From Circinaria calcarea (Eukaryota): DNA of 58,124 nt. The stretch covers positions 1 to 58,124 of the forward strand of contig JAVECS010000006.1 of assembly GCA_051942165.1 (NCBI GenBank). The letters are read 5' to 3'. The notes beneath the pieces are model-generated. The model was not told the origin of the DNA and searched no databases. It worked only from the letters and a program-made list of their open reading frames with translations. Within the stretch, counting starts at the first letter, position 1. Every line of letters starts with the position of its first letter. A program made the translations under genes and the position numbers. This document shows positions 19,279 through 56,216 of this stretch, one piece after another.

Positions 19279-19432
19279 TGACATCGGCGAGATTCGAACT
19301 CGCGCTGTTTTACCAACAGGTAGAAGCATGATTTAGAATCACCTGAAACCCTACCATAAGTTAATTATTTGTTGGATTGACATTGTGGGAAGGACCCGAC
19401 ATACTGCGCCATAACCACTCGGCCACGATGCC
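19279..19432 (-). tRNA. tRNA-Leu(CAG) with two introns: spliceosomal-type at 19351-19404 and canonical tRNA intron at 19323-19341
   Basis: Acceptor GGCATCG/CGATGTC plus discriminator A; D-arm GCC-GAGTGGTTAT-GGC; anticodon stem CA^GGT/ACCTG with loop TT-CAG-G^T; long variable arm; T-arm GCGAG-TTCGAAT-CTCGC; downstream T-runs. Mature length 81 nt. Confidence 0.88.
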
Positions 19433-36507: not shown

Positions 36508-38409
36508 CTAACCCATATATACATCCTTGTCCACCAATCTATACAAAGCCCGCAAGACTGCCAGACCTCCACTTTGCGTTTCCACCGTCCGGCCTCTGCC
36601 TCGGTCGTTCAGGTCTTTACTGCCGTCGTCGGTTCCCCGAGGGAGCTTCTTCCCGTGCGGCTTGAGTATTGGACGGTGCATTGGTACTGCGGCCCTACTC
36701 CGAGGTAATTGCCAAATGTCATCATCCGGAACGCCACTGTTCCTATAATCCGTCCCTTCGTCTTTTCCGTTAAGATGGTCGTCATTCCCAACCCACCGGT
36801 CCAACTTCGCGGCCCACCACATGCCAAATCTGCCTTCTTCGTCCCGAGTCTCATAAGCCGCCTCGGCGTTTCGCCGAATCCAGCCACCGTACTCCCTACA
36901 ACTTTTGCTATGAAGGGCCACCAAATCCTTATCGGCTCTCCAGAATACCCCTTCCTTCTCTCCCTTTGGTAAGGCCGCACAGAAGAGTGTCAGATGATGG
37001 AAGAAGATGCCTTTGAAGGTTTGGCCGTTCTGGTTGCATGTCCCGTGAAGATCACATGCTTCTTCGAGAATCCCATTTCTACCGAGTCCAGCCCATTGGT
37101 AATTCTCCGATGTGGATTCGATCGGCCATCCAGTCGCGGCTATCACGTTGCGAACAAGTTGGTGGCCGTCTTCGAGATAGTTTGTACTACCTGTGGCTTC
37201 CCAGAGACCGCGTAGACCAGAGAGCAAGACACCTTGGTTGTAAGTGTATACTTGCTCTTCGCGAACATCGCACTTTCCACTCCCTATGCTACCGTTCAGA
37301 CCTCCGCCTCGCCAACCATGGATATGAAAACCGTCGGTATAGAGACCCTTGGTGTTGGTCATGTTGCTTGACGACAGCCATGTGTAGGCTTCGATTGCAG
37401 CTTCGAGATACTTCTCATCATGCTCCTTTGCTTTAGGCAACTCTGCTGTTTCCCCGTTCACGAGGAACGGCGAGGTATTATCGTCGCCCGGGAAATATAA
37501 ATACATGCTGATGCTGGCGGAAATATACAGTTGATTTGTAATTGCGTTTTTGTAAGGCGCAAGATAAGGACTCCAGATCATACCACCGCCACACAGTGAA
37601 GTATCCCAGCCGCGCGATGCAAGATCGTAGAAAATACGCGCGCGATGCGCAAAAGAAGGGATAAATTGACGCCCATGCCAAGAAGAGTTACGCTCGCTGC
37701 TTGTAGAAGACTCAAAATGTAGCTCCGAGTGCGTGTTTATAAAGCTGATGCTTTCTAGCCACCCTAGTACTACCCACAACATGTCATCGTAGGCTTGTGT
37801 TCGGAGGCCAAAGGCATTTTCGCCGAAATAGAAGGAGGTAAGATGGCTGAAATATTGATTGATGAGATTCTCTCTAGCTGTCACACTGTCCATCATTAAC
37901 CCAGATTCATCAACAGCTCCAAGATGCGCGTCGTAGTCCGTAAAGCTCGTAATAGCATTCAGGGTGGTGGAAACCTGTGTTCCCATGACAGCCGCAGTCC
38001 AATCAATTGCGGTTGGCCATATGCCTAGCCATATCTCGAAGAAGTGTGATTGCATAACGTCGAGAGCGTCGAGCATGGCGGGAAACGTGGCGGGGAGGTT
38101 GGTAGGACTGTTGGGCTCTCCATCCTCAACTTGACTTCTAAACTGAGCTAAGTTTCCCAGTGTTGCTTTTCTCTTTTGTCCATGTTTGTTGTTTGCGTTC
38201 CGGCATGCTCGACCTGGACTCAGCGCAGAGTCCCTTCCTACCAGTATGCATCTTGGGTGAGGTGTGGTTGGCGACGAGGGCGCAAGGGCAGTAGCGACGC
38301 AGAACTGGATCAGAATCAACAAGGCAACCAGCTGTCGAAAGGGAAGCTTTCGGCGTGCTATTCGTTCGGCCATATTGTGGAGGCGATGAGAAGCCGGGCC
38401 ATAGCCCAT
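36508..38409 (-). CDS. Mirror copy: glycoside hydrolase family 76 protein
   Basis: Reverse complement of 19716-21617. Confidence 0.92.
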   Translation of the reverse strand: MGYGPASHRLHNMAERIARRKLPFRQLVALLILIQFCVATALAPSSPTTPHPRCILVGRDSALSPGRACRNANNKHGQKRKATLGNLAQFRSQVEDGEPNSPTNLPATFPAMLDALDVMQSHFFEIWLGIWPTAIDWTAAVMGTQVSTTLNAITSFTDYDAHLGAVDESGLMMDSVTARENLINQYFSHLTSFYFGENAFGLRTQAYDDMLWVVLGWLESISFINTHSELHFESSTSSERNSSWHGRQFIPSFAHRARIFYDLASRGWDTSLCGGGMIWSPYLAPYKNAITNQLYISASISMYLYFPGDDNTSPFLVNGETAELPKAKEHDEKYLEAAIEAYTWLSSSNMTNTKGLYTDGFHIHGWRGGGLNGSIGSGKCDVREEQVYTYNQGVLLSGLRGLWEATGSTNYLEDGHQLVRNVIAATGWPIESTSENYQWAGLGRNGILEEACDLHGTCNQNGQTFKGIFFHHLTLFCAALPKGEKEGVFWRADKDLVALHSKSCREYGGWIRRNAEAAYETRDEEGRFGMWWAAKLDRWVGNDDHLNGKDEGTDYRNSGVPDDDIWQLPRSRAAVPMHRPILKPHGKKLPRGTDDGSKDLNDRGRGRTVETQSGGLAVLRALYRLVDKDVYMG

Positions 38410-38692
38410 TTCATGTTATCGGTCCGAGCCAACGAGGTCATTCGGAGAGGTTATGCGCATCTTTTCGAATATCATCATGAGGCCAGGGAAGTTGCCGTGT
38501 CGAGTTTGAGACGGGGCTGAAAAAGTCATCAAGCCAAAGAGCGTCATCAAGCCTTTTGGTCGGAACATTCCAAATCGGGTGGGCTCTCGCCGTGATTAGT
38601 TAAACAAATTAATAACGAACGAATGCGAAGTCTCCCGGACTGATCAAAAATGGCTATATTTATGTAAATAAGTGGGTTATTTATTCGTATAA

Positions 38693-38846
38693 GGCATCGT
38701 GGCCGAGTGGTTATGGCGCAGTATGTCGGGTCCTTCCCACAATGTCAATCCAACAAATAATTAACTTATGGTAGGGTTTCAGGTGATTCTAAATCATGCT
38801 TCTACCTGTTGGTAAAACAGCGCGAGTTCGAATCTCGCCGATGTCA
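38693..38846 (+). tRNA. Mirror copy: tRNA-Leu(CAG) with spliceosomal-type intron 38721-38774 and canonical intron 38784-38802
   Basis: GGCATCGTGGCCGAGTGGTTATGGCGCA[GTATGT...TTAACTTATGGTAG]GGTTTCAGG[TGATTCTAAATCATGCTTC]TACCTGTTGGTAAAACAGCGCGAGTTCGAATCTCGCCGATGTCA. Confidence 0.88.
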
Positions 38847-40853
38847 ATTGTTTTGCTCCCTTTGACATATTGGTTTACTTTTTTTAAATCTATATACTTC
38901 ACATCCTGAGATGTTGCCGCGGTATTGAATCTAAACGGGGCTATGACCCTTTGCGCCCCTTTTTGTACTCGAGGATCCCTAGGAACTGCAAAGGGGTAGG
39001 GGTAGGGAAAGGACTGCTCTGGACAGTGGACGGAAACGAGCGAGATGGACTAGGAGACGAGGTTGGAGGGTCTAAATGATCCGCGGGATGGACGTGATAG
39101 CTGATCGCACATGGGATGGGAATTTGGAAAATACTAGGCGTGCGACCGGTGTTGAAGAACGCAGATATATGGTTAGGGAATAAAGCGGATCATCGGGGGA
39201 GCCTGAGATGGATCGGCATGTGGACGATTGTGTTGAAGACGAGGCCTACATAGGATAGCTGATATTCTAGTGCCAGACAATGCATCTCGAACTATCAAAT
39301 TTCAAGCATCAAAGTCATAGGAGACAGTCAGCTGATATTCACCTGTCGCGGCTATGCAAACTTAGACTCTTTGGCCTTAAACGCATACTGTGGTGCCGAT
39401 ATCTTGGACCTGCTAACAGCTCCTCAAACGACGCAACAATTGTCCGAGCGCTTGGAGTCACCACCCCCATCGAAACCCCTTCCAATGCCGCAAACGGACA
39501 CAAGAAGGGAAGGAGACAATGAACTATGATACTCGTATTTCCCTCTCGCAAACACTTATATTTTACCACCCATTCATCCATAGACAAATGAGGGTAACTG
39601 CCACCCCCAGCTTCGACTCCGCTGCCGAGCGCATGACGCGCTGGCGAGTGGAGGACCCCGAGAGAGAGAGGAACCTGTAGGGATTCTCCTAGTGGAGGGG
39701 AGAAGGCGCTGGGAGGGCGTGTTGCTTGTAGGAGCTGAAAGGAAAGGGGGAGAGAATATTAAGTGCTATAGTACTTGCATGAAGGTAGGATCAATGTGGA
39801 GAATAAGGAAGTGTAGGGAGAAAGCTCTAGTTGAGGAACGCTGCTGAAAGCGTAACGCAATATCATAGAGGTTGCCTAGGAGGAATCAAATACGAACTGC
39901 AGTGATGGGGAAGGCTATACGATTCAGTTTTCCATTGTTTGTTGTTAATTCTTTATATCCGAAAGTTCATCTGTTGTGGTACTGCCAAGACCCGGAGAAT
40001 GGAGCGGCCCGATTCTCGATTTTCGAATTTCGCCCACAAGCAACTGTGTATCTGGGACGCGGAAGAGACTTTAGGTTTGAATTCTTTGGGAGTATGCCTC
40101 TACGTTTGTACAGCTATAAAATACTCAACTACCAATAACCCTAGAGAAGTCATCGACTTCGCTGCTACATCTGTCACCATCTCTACTTTGCATAGACTGA
40201 TTGATTTATCCAGAAGTCATCTGTGGAATAAGCCTAGCTTCTGCTAAATACAACTGCGCTACAGTGTAAGCTCTCTCCTCCAACGTGCCTATGGGTATCC
40301 AAACGATAGACATGAAGAATAGATTACACATCATCTCTCTTTGAAAGGAATATACAAGAGGGTATCTTGAGCGACAGTTGGCAAGAAAATAATGCTATAC
40401 AATGTTTTCAGATCCTCGTAGCTGTGCCCGCAGCGAGAGTAAAGCCGTCCGTGAAAATGCTCAACGCTTAGGGTATGTAGCGATGGTGGCGATATGAGAT
40501 ATCTGTGTTCTCGTAATCTCGCTAACAAGGTCGAGGATCGTACTAGATCAACTATCGAGGTAGCTTCTACATGAAGCGTACACGTCGATGATTTTCTATT
40601 CTGAAACCGTATTCTTAGAGTCGTAGATAAATGAGACGGATCATGGCTGTTGTCCACAGGACACGAAGCTGCCGTACACATAGCGACAGTGTTGGTACAT
40701 GGGTATTTGAAGATGCTGGAAAGTCTGTAGCGGAGTCAATGAAATTTAGCGACTGTCGAAGTCGGTGGTCGCCAGCGGTCGGAAAATGTTATTGGTACAT
40801 TAATATGGCTGCGCGTAAATCATCAATTGTCGTAGACTCCGAAGCCATCCTGA

Positions 40854-42292
<1,439 letters not shown>

Positions 42293-43844
42293 AATGAATC
42301 TCCTTTAGTGCTGTTGGAGTTGCTGTGGTATGTGCAGGGTTTATATAATCAAGCGTTGTGTGAATAGGGATGATGAAAATCCAATGAAGCTGTATGCGAT
42401 TCACAGGTATAAGCTTCCGGCACTGGGGCGAGTAGTGTTCTCGGAGCCCTTTTTTGCGATGAAGATACAGACCAAAGGCGGACATGCAGGAGGTTATATT
42501 CTGTTCGCCAGTTATTTCCCTCCTCTTGCCCCTCCCCTTCCCCTCAGCTGACTGCCTCGGAGCAGAATACATGATGACCGTTGGCATCGACAAGTGCCTC
42601 TGGCCGGTTATTGCAGGAGAGCCAGAAAGCTTCGCGCTTCCTTCCCTTCGGGGGGCCTAATGACGACTCGCGTCGGGTGTAACAGTTGGAAGAAGGCAAA
42701 GGGACGTCGAGAGAAGGTTCAGAATGGTCAGGGAATCTTCGCGGGTCTTGCTCCAGCCAATCAGAGGCATTACCACCCTGGCGATTTTCCCGGCGGGGCT
42801 AGCGGCTAGACCGGCTTGGCGATGCAGCTGACAAGATCTTGGGATGGAATATTCCAATCGAAGGGCCTGGTCTGCTTCCCTTTCCCAGCCCCAGCGGTGA
42901 AGAAAGGGTTTGCGGGGAAACATGGGGAAGGTGGATGATCGGATGAAGAACGGGAATGGCTTCAGGTGGCTTTGAACGGGTCGTGTGCCACTTGGCCCGA
43001 GGAGACATGTGTCGTACGACGAGGATCCTCAGACGCTGCTTGTGGCGTCAGCGGCGTTGGGGGTTCCCTCCAATAGCTCTATCAACTCAAACGTATTACT
43101 CAAGATGTAAAGGTAATCGAGGCACTCTTGGATGCGTTGGGTTTCTGCACACACACCACAGCCTGCCAATACCCCAACTTGACTTCTGAGCCCCCAGACC
43201 AAAGTCTCTCGGCCTTGTGCCGGTTGGATCCCAAGTGGTTTGTTTGCGCGGCCTAATTCTCCCATTGTGTGGAAGAGCATAGACCGTCTGCCCAAGCCCA
43301 AGATGGGTACTCGGGAGGTACTCTGAATGGGCCAGGTTCTCATGACAAATTGCAAGTACCCAGCCAGCGCATCAATCGTACGCTTGTTGTATTTATCCGC
43401 CCTTTTTCTTTCTGATTGGATCTCGTATAAATGAGCTATAGTGTCTTTGGTCAGCAGTGCAGGATAACTGGGAGAATCCCGTGATGGCTGACATCATCGT
43501 AAAGGTTTTGCAGGTCACTGGATGTCCTCCGTCTGGTCGGCTCGTTCGTCTGATCTTCTCTTATTGCGCCAAGGCGGCAGTCAGTTGGTAGCATCAAAGT
43601 ACTCGATCGGAAATCGATGTCACCAATTAGCCATCATTGTACCTCAATCAGATGACCGTGGTTGTGCCCATTACTCACAGGGACGTCCACTATATGCCCC
43701 GCATGCGATTGAATTAAGCATTTGTTCGGAATCCTCAGGCTAAAGGTGTTCTAGTCCACCATGAATTTGGCCGCTCCGAGGCAGCCCATGCCTTTCTCGG
43801 CTCATCCTCGAAAATAGTGTTAGGGCTTACGTAAGTCGAACAGT

Positions 43845-48807: not shown

Positions 48808-49771
48808 ATGGTGAAGCGCAAAGAGCCTGAGGTGGCTGAGAAGCAATTTCCGGACGAGAGTAGTAGTAGTGATGAGGTGCGAACCAAGAGATCACATACT
48901 GCTTTCCCGCTAAGGTGGGGATAGGACACCGATATGTTGGACGTGGAATTCGAATGGTTCGATCCACAGCCGGAACATGATTTTCATGGCTTGAAGACGT
49001 TGTTGCGGCAGTTATTCGACGTCGACGCTCAACTATTCGATCTTAGCGCTTTGACAGACCTGGTACTTGCCCAGCCACTACTTGGTTCCACTGTTAAGGT
49101 GGAGGGGAACGAAACGGACCCTTATGCCTTTTTGACAATCTTGAACCTTCACGAGCATAGGGTACATTAGTCTTGACCTCTATTAGATGCCTGAGTTGAC
49201 CCGACTATAGGATAAGCCAATCATCAAGACCTTGACGGACTACATAGCGCAACAAGCAATGACAAATCCTTCATTATCACCAATAGCAGATCTTCTCAAA
49301 CCGTTCAACCAGGCCGAAGTAGGTCTTATTCTCACCGAAAGGCTGATAAACATTCCATCGGAGGTTGTGCCACCTATGTACAAGATGTTGTTAGAGGAGA
49401 TATCCTGGGCAATTGAGGAGAAGGAGCCTTATACCTTCTCTCACTATCTGATCCTCTCAAAGACCTACCGGGAAATTACATCGGCCTTGAATCAAGAGAA
49501 CAGTAGACCACAGAAGAAGAAGAAAAAGAATGCTGCCAAGGAGGAGAATAGAGAAATATTCTACTTTCATCCGGAAGACGAGGTTTGCCAACGCCATGCA
49601 ACAATGTACGGGGGTTTTGCGTACCTGAAGGAGGAAAGCGATGGTCAGGCGGACGCAAAAAGGACGTTCCAGGAGCTGGGAATAAAACCGCAGGGTCATA
49701 TGATGTTACTAGAAGCATCGAAGTTTGAATCGGCAGTTAAGGCCTTGGAGGACTTTATGCGGCCATCCTGA
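48808..49771 (+). CDS. BCP1: Mirror copy: BCP1
   Basis: Reverse complement of 8354-9317. Confidence 0.92.
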
Positions 49772-51238: not shown

Positions 51239-53335
51239 ATGGCAAGCAGTAATGCTCCATCATCGGCGGCAGAAGGTGAATCGGTCCTGGGGACTGCCTT
51301 AACCGTAATACTCTAGACAGCTTTGAAAGGGCCTGGCTAATGTGTGATAGACTCGTCATATCGAAGCTTTTGGTCGGAAGGTCACAACAACTGCAAACCA
51401 CCTGATCGGACCTTTAGGTGATCCAAGCAGTAGCTCACATTACCAACATGCTATGAGTGAGCTGCAGAGGGAGCTTCGACGGCCGGGCATTCAGCAAAGG
51501 GTATTCTCGTATGCCCAAGCCTCCCCAAGGGAGCTTGTAAGATCCAAGTTGTCGAAATCAGAGATTCAACACCGCGCCCTTACTTATATCCCAGATGAGC
51601 TTCTCAGAACTATACCCGAGAATGACAATACGTACTCGCTGTTCCAAGGCTTTACTGCAACGGTACCGGAAGATGAAATTGAACACAGAAAGACCCATAG
51701 ACGGCGCAACTCAAGGAGCCAGAAGCTGCTTGGAGAGGTAGAGCAAGATGAGACAGATCAGCATCCGTCTCTGTCGAAGTTGAAGCAGGAAAGACGTGCA
51801 GTGAATCACCGCTTGGAAATGATGGGAGTACGAAAGAACATGTGTTCTTCTGAAATTCGAGAGATAGACAACAAAATCTCCAACCTCAACAGTATGCGGA
51901 AGATTGTGCTGGATAGGCTATCAGGTCTGGAGGAGGACGAGTTACGGGTGGAGCATGAGCTTCTGAGTCTCGATAATAAATTAGAGGATCTCCAAGAAGA
52001 GTTGGATGATGCTAAAACGCTGGGCAATACTGCAACGCCTCCTCTGGGTATAGATCCAGATCCAGACCTGGACCCAGATGCCTTGGACTTAGAGACCCAG
52101 ACAGCAACGGATACTTTCATGTCCGCGTCGATCTATGAGAAAATACCATCACCGAAAGCAAAGCGACATAAGGTCAACCGGCGGAAGTCTATGCCCATTC
52201 GGCATGAGCACTTTGAGCCTGGTACAAACATCAAAGACCTTCAGGCTCACAATGACATAATCACGGCTCTAGATTTCGATGCGCCCTTCGGCACTATGGT
52301 GACGGCCGCACTTGATGACACTGTTCGTGTATGGGACCTTAATATTGGCCGATGTATGGGTCTACTTGAAGGTCACCGAGCGTCGGTAAGATGTCTACAG
52401 GTAGAAGACAACATCGTGGCAACGGGTTCGATAGATGCATCGATTCGACTGTGGGACTTGAGTAGAGCGGAATATACGCCAGAGGACAATAGAATCAACA
52501 AGCAGGGTGATGAAGACGCAGAGGATAGCTCCATCTTCGAAAACCCGGGGGATTTACATCCAGCTCCACCTATCTCGAGCATGGAAGACTGTCCAATGTT
52601 TTCCCTGGAAGCCCATGTGGACGAGGTAACGGCTTTACACTTCAGGGGCGACATACTCGTTTCAGGCTCTGCGGACAAGACATTAAGGCAGTGGGATCTC
52701 GTTAAAGGCCGCTGCGTCCAAACGCTGGATGTGCTGTGGGCTGCGGCACAAGCCTCTTCGACTCTCAACTCCAACAATGGCCAATGGCGGACCACCGGGC
52801 GACTTCCGGATGCTACAGCAGATTTTGTTGGAGCTGTACAATGTTTCGATGCTGCTTTAGCCTGTGGAACAGCAGATGGCATGGTTCGTTTGTGGGATCT
52901 TCGAAGTGGCCAGGTACATCGAAGTCTGGTGGGACACACTGGACCTGTGACTTGCCTGCAGTTTGACGACGTCCACCTAGTCACAGGTAGTTTGGATCGA
53001 AGCGTCAGGGTATGTACCAAACATGGAATCGTGTAGAGTAGAGCACTAACTAGGCATAGATCTGGGATTTACGGACGGGTTCTATTTACGATGCATTCGC
53101 GTATGAAAATCCTATTACAAGCATGATGTTCGACACAAGACGCATCGTCGCTGCCGCTGGCGAAAACGTAGCTAAGGTGTATGATAAGACTGACGGGCGG
53201 CATTGGGATTGTGGGGCTGGTATTACTTGCCAGGAGGAAGACAGGCATCCGGGTATAGTAGAGAAGGTCCGGATCAAGGACGGCTACATGACCGAAGGCC
53301 GCAGAGATGGGGTGGTCGGGATTTGGACCTGCTGA
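51239..53335 (+). CDS. MDV1: Mirror copy: mitochondrial division protein 1
   Basis: Reverse complement of 4790-6886. Confidence 0.9.
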
Positions 53336-54143: not shown

Positions 54144-56216
54144 ATGGTCCAAAGACGTGCACAACAACAACCAGAGGCGCGCTTCACGTCGTCACGGGAT
54201 GATCGTGAAATGGGGGGGTATAAAAGAGATTATAGCGGAGAGGAATACCCGATTGCTATTCAACTACCAGTCACGATTGGAGTAGGCGCACGGAGAAAGA
54301 GGAATCGTTACATGACCGGCGTACCAGCAACTGCTCTCCTACTCCTGGCAGCGTCGATACCTGTCGTGTCTGCACAGGCCTGTATATCGCTCTCAGGGTC
54401 TACACAATGCCCGGCCTTTAATACATCGTCCATTTCTACAGATTCCACTCTTAGCTCGTTCTTGTGAGTCGACCTTTACGGGACTAACACTCCATCAGCT
54501 AACCTTCTATAGCCCTTTCCTCTCCTTTGTCTCAAATACACAAGAATTCGACGAGCGACTTAGCCAGTATATCACGTCGAATTACGTTCAATTGAAGTAT
54601 GTTACACCAATCCATGAGAAGCCTAGAAGCGAGCAAGCTAAGTTGTTTATCAGGTATCAGCAATTACTCGGCTGCAATAATGTTACTCTCACCAACACTA
54701 CCGCCTATTACGCACGCTATACCGCTAGTATGATATGTAATTCTATTGTTCAAAATTCGATAGAGCCCTGCTCTTTGTCCGCTGCAGATTCTCGCCCACT
54801 GTGCGCGGATTCCTGTGTAGGTAAACGTATCCGAAGCTCTGTCAGTCTACTAATGGTGTGTAGGCTCAGCAAGCAATTAGCGAAGAGCGTATAACCGTTA
54901 ATCCCGAACTGTGTGGAACGCCGAATCAAAACTTCTTGACGCAAATACGGGCCGATTTTACCAACTGCGCATTACCGGCAGACTCTTTGAGTGGATCATG
55001 TATTACAGGTGAACAGAATGAGCCCAATGAATGCGGTTTCTCGACCAATATGCAAGGTCTTTGCAGTTATTGCGCATCCAGCTCCCCAAATGCTACAGAT
55101 TCTTGTTGCATTGGCTCAAACGCCACCGGCCGCTGCATTGGCGTTACGCTACCTCCCCTTGTGTCCATGCCCCCACTTTTCCCGTCCTCGACTTCGGCCT
55201 CGACAGCGTCAACACCGTCAGCGACAAACGGTAATTCAACTGCAGGAGGGGCCGGCGGTCCTCCTAACCTGTCTGGCGGTCAGATCGCAGGCATCGTGAT
55301 TGGATCTGTCCTGGGGGCGGCATTTCTGCTTGCATTGTTGTTCCTGTGCTGCATTTATCTCCGAAGACGGCGGAGGACTACTCCTCACGGCAGTATCTTC
55401 AATCAGCCTTCTCCAAAGCGTGGAGTGCAGCCTCAAATGTCTTCCGTCCGAGATCCAGGACAGGTAGTGCCTGGCGGTCGGGTTGCGAGGATGTCAGCAT
55501 TGGAAGGCACCTCTAGTAGTGATCCGCAGTATGTTAACCCGGTGCTGGCTGCAGAGAGACGCCGGCTCGGGGAAACATCGGACTCGGACTTGTACGGCGA
55601 CAGTCCAGGCTCTCGCGGTAGAGGAGCGCCTCCGGCTACAGGAAGACGGAATGGATCACTTTCAAGTAACTCTGTCTTCGGCGGAGGCGTTGACAACGGA
55701 ACTTCTCCAGTTTCTGGAAGTGGAGCTCAGTTCTCCTCGCCGGATGGTATAGGTAGCGGGCAGTCCGAACAGTTAATGTCGTTTAAAGATTATTATTCGC
55801 CGGATGAGATTCATCCCAACGATAAGGTTGCTACTCTGTGGGCATATCAACCTCGAGCAGGTGACGAATTCGAGCTTGAAAGAGGCGATATGCTCAAGGT
55901 CGTAGGCATCTGGGATGATGGATGGGCTACAGGCGTGCGCATCAATGATCGTGCGGAAGACTATGATCCGAAGCGCAAAGAACTGAGGGATAGCGGTGTC
56001 TCAAATGGCACCGGCAGGAGGGAGTCCTCTCCTCCGCCCATGGGGGAGATCAAAGCTTTTCCAGTAAGTAATAGAACTGTAAACCTCAGCGCATCTATGC
56101 TAACGTTTGTCCAGCTTGTCTGTGTATGTTTGCCGGAGCATTGGAAGAAGACTGTTGAGGGTGAAGGCTCGCAAGAAGGCGGACCAGGCGGGCCACCGTC
56201 CGGTCACGGTCTTTGA
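54144..56216 (+). CDS. Mirror copy: Cys-rich/TM/SH3 protein
   Basis: Reverse complement of 1909-3981. Confidence 0.85.

Follow-up and report, generated by a model that had tools for sequence, protein, structure and literature searches.

Introns removed by the spliceosome and introns of tRNAs are usually held apart: in the relevant sections of two reviews, spliceosomal introns are assigned to Pol II transcripts and a few snRNAs, whereas tRNA introns are assigned to an endonuclease-ligase pathway (PMC12530127, PMC10275265). The sections of these and a third review that deal with tRNA introns describe the endonuclease type only, including the non-canonical introns of Archaea, Cyanidioschyzon merolae and nucleomorphs that are flanked by bulge-helix-bulge (BHB) structures (PMC4090602, PMC12530127, PMC10275265). 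Among the archaeal introns listed are some in the anticodon stem, at positions 29/30 and 30/31 (PMC4090602). The tRNA genes of Archaea, C. merolae and the cryptophyte and chlorarachniophyte nucleomorphs resemble the gene reported here in that several introns can occur per gene and that standard finders miss them, as described in the same review (PMC4090602). However, those introns are defined by a BHB and cut by endonuclease (PMC4090602), whereas the 54-nt insert analyzed here has no BHB and carries spliceosomal signals. The canonical eukaryotic intron at position 37/38 is matched by a second, 19-nt intron in the same gene and by an 11-nt intron in L075, a related gene from metagenome data. 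The 54-nt insert differs from this canonical type, as it is located at position 28/29, lies within a stem and is bordered by GT...AG.

Several fungal non-coding RNA genes are known to contain spliceosomal introns. The U6 snRNA of S. pombe, which is made by Pol III, contains an mRNA-type intron which the spliceosome excises (Tani and Ohshima 1989, 1991, cited in PMC5855946). U6 and the present locus are alike in that the gene of a small, structured Pol III RNA is interrupted by a short intron of the GT-AG type that includes a branch site, and the account of the U6 intron in PMC5855946 includes the suggestion that it originated by reverse splicing followed by reverse transcription. In contrast to U6, the host is here a tRNA, which stands outside the spliceosome, so that closeness to the catalytic centre cannot account for how the intron was gained. 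The tRNA-Leu(CAG) RNA would additionally need the unrelated TSEN endonuclease and a ligase, and its splicing is one that we infer. Rhodotorula hasegawae carries further spliceosomal introns in its U2, U5 and U1 snRNA genes, and others are known from rRNA genes (Takahashi 1993, 1996; Bhattacharya 2000; cited in PMC5855946), and introns were also reported for fungal U3 snoRNA genes (PMC5832005). These cases are similar to the present one in being spliceosomal introns of fungal non-coding RNA genes with a patchy, lineage-specific spread, but their host RNAs are different and no tRNA is named among them in the survey given by PMC5855946, where the determinants of spliceosomal intron insertion into non-coding RNAs are described as unclear. 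Introner-like elements of Dothideomycetes have been proposed as a source of newly gained fungal spliceosomal introns (PMC4457414). The elements portrayed there are multi-copy and reside in protein-coding genes (PMC4457414), whereas the tRNA insert has no second copy within 29 kb.

In a full-text search of the literature, largely confined to journals outside subscription, no description of a spliceosomal intron within a tRNA gene turned up. This is in line with the preliminary description of the locus, whose author knew of no such case. The locus is best interpreted as a functional nuclear tRNA-Leu(CAG) gene with a 54-nt insert in the 5' strand of the anticodon stem that represents a U2-type (GT-AG) spliceosomal intron and would be removed before TSEN cuts the canonical intron. 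Based on the sequence comparisons detailed below, a probability of roughly 0.68 is assigned to this interpretation. Two aspects are new on this interpretation, namely the type of gene that hosts the putative spliceosomal intron and the apparent requirement for two splicing systems on one RNA. Excision by the spliceosome, the enzyme and the polymerase involved and the order of the steps are what we infer from the arrangement of the signals.

The window, i.e., the entire stretch of DNA that was analyzed, spans 58,124 bases and consists of a 29,062-base stretch joined to its own exact reverse complement (2 x 29,062 bases, 0 mismatches). Every feature consequently appears twice, which looks like a result of window construction and not of biology. 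The intervals 19279-19432 (-) and 38693-38846 (+) are therefore a single locus seen on two strands and do not indicate a second gene. Coordinates are given on the + copy, and a position x maps to 58125-x on the other copy (Table 1). Pfam annotation identified the 29-kb stretch as a gene-dense chromosomal region with genes for GH76, GH5, DUF829, GMP synthase, BCCIP, chorismate mutase, a WD40 protein, an SH3 protein and an aldo-keto reductase. The tRNA gene is located between the GH76 and GH5 genes and is divergent from GH76. The protein-atlas clusters nearest to the DUF829 ORF are eukaryotic, with Ascomycota being the commonest, which serves as a lead only.

Table 1. Features of the interrupted tRNA-Leu(CAG) gene, its neighbouring genes and probable local mRNA introns in the window.
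Feature	Position	Strand	Remarks
Whole interrupted tRNA-Leu(CAG) gene	38693-38846	+	154 nt; mirror 19279-19432 (-)
Exon 1	38693-38720	+	Acceptor 5' strand, D arm, G26, C27-A28 of anticodon stem; ARAGORN after deletion
A box	38700-38710	+	TGGCCGAGTGG; inside exon 1
Spliceosomal-type insert between tRNA positions 28 and 29	38721-38774	+	54 nt; mirror 19351-19404
Donor GTATGT	38721-38726	+	Hexamer also opens probable mRNA introns 53010-53059 (+) and 41707-41757 (-)
Branch-like TTAAC	38761-38765	+	Insert positions 41-45, followed by 9 nt; distance of the A (38764) from the end 10 nt
Acceptor TAG	38772-38774	+	First AG past the branch-like motif
Middle exon	38775-38784	+	10 nt; G29-U31 of anticodon stem and loop; anticodon CAG at 38780-38782
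Canonical tRNA intron	38785-38803	+	19 nt, anticodon loop; ARAGORN placement; 38784-38802 gives the same product
Last exon	38804-38846	+	Stem 3' strand ACCTG, 13-nt variable arm, T arm, acceptor 3' strand, discriminator A
B box	38824-38834	+	GAGTTCGAATC; T arm of last exon
Downstream T run (T4)	38851-38854	+	Five bases downstream of the gene
Downstream T run (T7)	38879-38885	+
GH76 neighbour gene	36508-38415	-	Pfam PF03663, E 6.2e-24; marks neighbourhood homologous to L075
GH5 gene	40904-42211	-	Pfam
Probable mRNA intron	53010-53059	+	50 nt, donor GTATGT
Probable mRNA intron	54464-54512		49 nt, donor GTGAGT
Probable mRNA intron	54817-54863		47 nt, donor GTAGGT
Probable mRNA intron	41707-41757	-	51 nt, donor GTATGT

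Exact deletion of the 54-nt insert in silico allowed ARAGORN to identify a tRNA-Leu(CAG) of 81 nt with a 19-nt intron in the anticodon loop, and the restored anticodon stem (CAGGT/ACCTG) contains five perfect base pairs. An identical product is obtained if both borders of the insert are shifted by one base, but GT...AG ends occur only at the borders listed in Table 1. After removal of both inserts, the window gene and L075 each display a long variable arm, U33, a purine at position 37 and discriminator A, as is found in functional tRNA-Leu. Both genes also contain the A and B boxes and a T-run terminator of Pol III genes. The distance between the A and B boxes is stretched to approximately 124 nt in the window gene; spacing of this extent may be tolerated. 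Runs of four T are absent from the pre-tRNA of either gene and T runs follow just downstream in both. The T4 and T7 runs of the window gene are likely Pol III terminators, and L075 features T4 directly after the discriminator and T5 further on. One lone B-box-like motif (GGTTCGATCC) was noticed at position 48956 (+), with neither an A box nor a tRNA call nearby, and is probably due to chance.

The undeleted gene is not recognized by standard search tools. ARAGORN in default mode did not find a tRNA in the window and was silent on unmodified L075. Allowing introns (-i) resulted in the call of a tRNA-Phe(AAA) with a 64-nt intron at the unmodified locus, which was rejected due to its poor anticodon stem and absurd variable region and because unmodified L075 gave no call. 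Rfam searches at the gathering score reported nothing for the locus, and in E-value mode the Rfam tRNA model matched the T arm only, with 13.1 bits compared to a gathering score of 29. The coordinates given in the preliminary description and the features listed there (A box, B box, discriminator A and the lack of TTTT in the insert) were verified. It had also anticipated that deletion would yield a tRNA-Leu(CAG) with a 37/38 intron and that standard finders would miss or miscall the gene, and the ARAGORN and Rfam results are as foreseen.

The splice-like signals of the insert were evaluated against a loose intron definition that combined a GTRNGT donor, a YTRAY motif 6-30 nt from the end and a terminal YAG and was applied to all positions and all lengths of 40-80 nt. 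Only 23 of 2,380,624 segments on both strands of the stretch satisfied this definition (approximately 1e-5), a count that includes the real introns. Introns of nearby protein-coding genes were obtained by strict ORF joining and thus represent reading frames, not RNA. This procedure returned nine candidate rows at five places, four of which were taken as probable mRNA introns (Table 1). The fifth place (43036-43154, 117-119 nt) is doubtful and was set aside, as were the results of a relaxed ORF-joining search, which proved too noisy. The four probable introns have lengths of 47-51 nt, compared to 54 nt for the tRNA insert. Their branch A residues are located 7-10 nt from the intron end, while this distance is 10 nt in the window insert and 11 nt in the L075 insert. 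Judged against these ORF-joined introns, the 54-nt insert is of the same size and signal class as the local mRNA introns. It had been described beforehand as a GTATGT...TTAAC...TAG element of local intron size whose donor recurs in introns of MDV1 and EXG1; the signals are present and the donor was indeed recovered in the WD40 (MDV1-like) and GH5 (EXG1-like) genes. The anticodon CAG itself constitutes a second YAG, 8 nt past the proposed acceptor, and the resulting segment 38721-38782 also passes the loose filter. Use of this second YAG would destroy the tRNA and the choice of the first AG as the acceptor therefore matters.

Metagenome data were scanned with a pattern in which a portion of the D arm and the six bases leading up to the insert were fixed, 40-70 nt of any sequence were allowed and the nine bases following the insert were fixed again. 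The pattern set no GT, AG, branch motif or tRNA 3' half; it did impose the position of the insert and its exon flanks and is therefore uninformative on how frequent the arrangement is. Among 92 matches, a single tRNA was detected, which is the Leu(CAG) gene of L075 (- strand, 4089-3946). The other 91 matches contained no B box and no GT...AG and no tRNA emerged when the gap was deleted. In control scans with this pattern, prokaryotic genomes contributed 72 matches and viral contigs 5; GT...AG was absent from all of them, and none formed a tRNA spanning the junction. Among these 77 control constructs, ARAGORN made one call, which was dismissed because this unrelated bacterial tRNA-Gly occupies construct positions 79-152 and does not touch the junction. 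The L075 insert is 52 nt long, is found at the same site (28/29) and follows the order GT...CTAAC...TAG with the branch A 11 nt from the end and the first AG as the acceptor. Its donor GTACAG retains the GT but lacks G at +5 and T at +6 and is a mismatch to GTRNGT, the donor form of the local mRNA introns, which the GTATGT of the window matches. Deletion of the insert again led ARAGORN to report a tRNA-Leu(CAG), which contains the canonical intron of 11 nt. A weak donor of similar appearance (GTACAT, without G at +5) was seen at a candidate 49-nt intron (49162-49210, +) just upstream of the BCCIP ORF in the window, which was suggested by ORF joining only.

The genomic surroundings of the two tRNA genes could be compared. 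A GH76 homolog is encoded at L075 4857-6471, approximately 770 nt from the tRNA, with 67% identity over 1127 nt in blastn and blocks of 62-76% amino acid identity in tblastx searches with the window GH76. As a tRNA lies beside a homologous GH76 gene in both cases, the loci belong to homologous neighbourhoods of clearly different species, and on this comparison the two tRNA loci are regarded as positional homologs in well-diverged species. Compared to the window, the L075 tRNA flanks the opposite side of GH76 and has the reverse relative orientation, so that paralogy or independent gain may apply instead of strict orthology. A local rearrangement or a paralogous copy is taken to underlie the placement of the L075 tRNA. 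The preliminary description had expected that a relative's locus next to GH76 would combine conserved exons and GT, branch and AG signals with a divergent intron interior, and the one relative found displays all of these, albeit with the donor GTACAG. A weak GH5-like match at L075 7497-7646 suggests that the order GH76-GH5 was kept. A minor rearrangement seems to have its breakpoint at the tRNA (L075 3946-6471 versus window 36508-38846).

Alignment of the two genes revealed that 72 of 81 exon columns (89%) are identical, with 26 of 28 identical positions in exon 1, 10 of 10 in the middle exon and 36 of 43 in the last exon. The inserts on both sides of the invariant middle exon diverge: only 21 of 58 alignment columns of the large insert and 6 of 19 columns of the canonical intron are identical, and the interior of the large insert is unalignable. 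Eight of the nine exon differences form four compensatory double changes that maintain Watson-Crick pairs (two in the T stem and one each in the acceptor and variable-arm stems), and the ninth difference affects the 13:22 pair. Overall, 47 of 48 cells are paired in the two genes, and sliding the partners by 1-3 columns abolished all double changes. Random placement of nine changes on 81 exon positions altered at least four pairs on both sides in 0 of 200,000 trials. A shuffle control of the pairing gave 34 of 500, a test that has little power with two sequences. The exon pattern indicates purifying selection on tRNA structure and reads as the signature of a tRNA that is kept functional as its introns and flanking sequences drift. 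Had the insert been inherited, the gene would have worked with it in place, which would call for its precise removal. Eight bases 3' of the gene (TTTTGCTC; window 38847-38858, alignment A1 columns 213-220) are identical in L075 and the remaining flank is unalignable; this stretch is possibly the terminator together with a conserved 3'-trailer element.

These data bear directly on the possibility that the locus is a dead gene, i.e., a Leu(CAG) copy that was inactivated when an intron-like sequence inserted into it, perhaps through reverse splicing and subsequent reverse transcription, while intact genes supply the tRNA. The rejection of the locus by tRNA finders would fit such a scenario, and eukaryotic tRNA genes with odd inserts are presumed to be pseudogenes where they are mentioned in reviews (PMC4090602). 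Intron-less Leu(CAG) paralogs may also exist. In contrast, a dead gene would not be expected to keep exons with 89% identity next to strongly diverged flanks, inserts and neighbouring coding sequence, nor exon differences of which eight out of nine are compensatory. The window gene and L075 have each preserved an intact A box, B box, discriminator and terminator, and the splice signals were retained while the interior of the insert was not. Inactivation is thus considered unlikely.

A further possibility leaves the spliceosome in place and changes the polymerase. The tRNA would then be spliced as part of a longer, capped Pol II transcript from which RNase P and RNase Z release it, and the Pol III signals would be of secondary importance. 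In favour of this route, the spliceosome is usually coupled to Pol II, and the L075 tRNA shares its strand with GH76, from which it lies approximately 770 nt downstream. However, the divergent orientation of the window tRNA and GH76 means that there is no conserved host transcript that both loci could share. The A and B boxes and the downstream T runs of both genes, which do not contain an internal run of four T, also argue against this route, which we regard as improbable.

Excision by proteins of the tRNA pathway would require that TSEN or another endonuclease and a tRNA ligase process a non-canonical tRNA intron whose GT...AG ends are coincidental. There is precedent for non-canonical and multiple introns, including some in the anticodon stem, in Archaea, C. 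merolae and nucleomorphs, and for some of the nucleomorph introns the mechanism is given as unknown in the review that covers them (PMC4090602). BHB motifs were searched for as 3-nt bulges around a 4-bp helix in 16 geometries for each gene, which included the product-equivalent shift by one base. Neither a BHB nor a relaxed BHB was found at the borders of the insert, as the best central helix comprised three of four pairs in the window and two of four in L075. The eukaryotic TSEN measures the tRNA body to reach position 37/38, as outlined in the same review (PMC4090602), and the insert prevents formation of the anticodon stem. Given its position (28/29 and not 37/38) and the missing BHB, the insert was not assigned to the TSEN/BHB class. 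The coincidence would also have to extend to the GT, the branch motif with its A at 10-11 nt and the first-AG end in both genes, which for one gene alone has a chance of approximately 1e-5, and protein-based excision is accordingly viewed as very unlikely. A group I or group II ribozyme should be far larger than 52-54 nt, and a transposon footprint or introner-like repeat was discarded since the insert has no inverted ends (3 of 10 positions only in the terminal repeats), no target-site duplication of 2-8 nt and, within 29 kb, no copy other than its self-match.

For the favoured interpretation of a spliceosomal intron in a functional tRNA gene, the following maturation pathway is proposed. Points that count against this interpretation are the weak donor of L075, the single relative found, the stretched A-to-B box distance and the fact that the spliceosome does not ordinarily act on Pol III transcripts. 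Pol III would most likely transcribe the gene, starting from the internal A and B boxes and stopping at the downstream T runs. The spliceosome would recognize GUAUGU, the UUAAC branch and the first AG, release the 54 nt as a lariat and join A28 to G29. The anticodon stem CAGGU/ACCUG could form only after this removal. TSEN would then measure from the folded tRNA body and cut the 19-nt intron before tRNA ligase seals the halves. The proposed order with the spliceosome acting first is suggested by the fact that the insert breaks the anticodon stem on which TSEN relies.

It is conceivable, though put forward here tentatively and at somewhat less than even odds, that the gene represents a hidden class of ascomycete tRNAs whose Pol III transcripts need the spliceosome before the tRNA endonuclease. 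The 28/29 intron of Leu(CAG) would then be an old, selected feature that different species have inherited, some genomes would have no source of an isoacceptor other than such genes, and fungal tRNA gene counts would be systematically too low. If the interpretation of the locus is correct, it would provide the second natural case, after U6, in which a product of Pol III is processed by the spliceosome and would link translation capacity to the activity of the spliceosome. It would also bear on the gain of introns in abundant structured RNAs that never reach the spliceosome's active site. For annotation methods of the tRNAscan, ARAGORN and Infernal type, it would reveal a blind spot, and apparent gaps in fungal tRNA sets may then be artefacts. 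Should such genes be the sole isoacceptor source in some genomes, the decoding of CUG would depend on the spliceosome. In eight ORFs of the window, CUG accounts for 60 of the 279 leucine codons.
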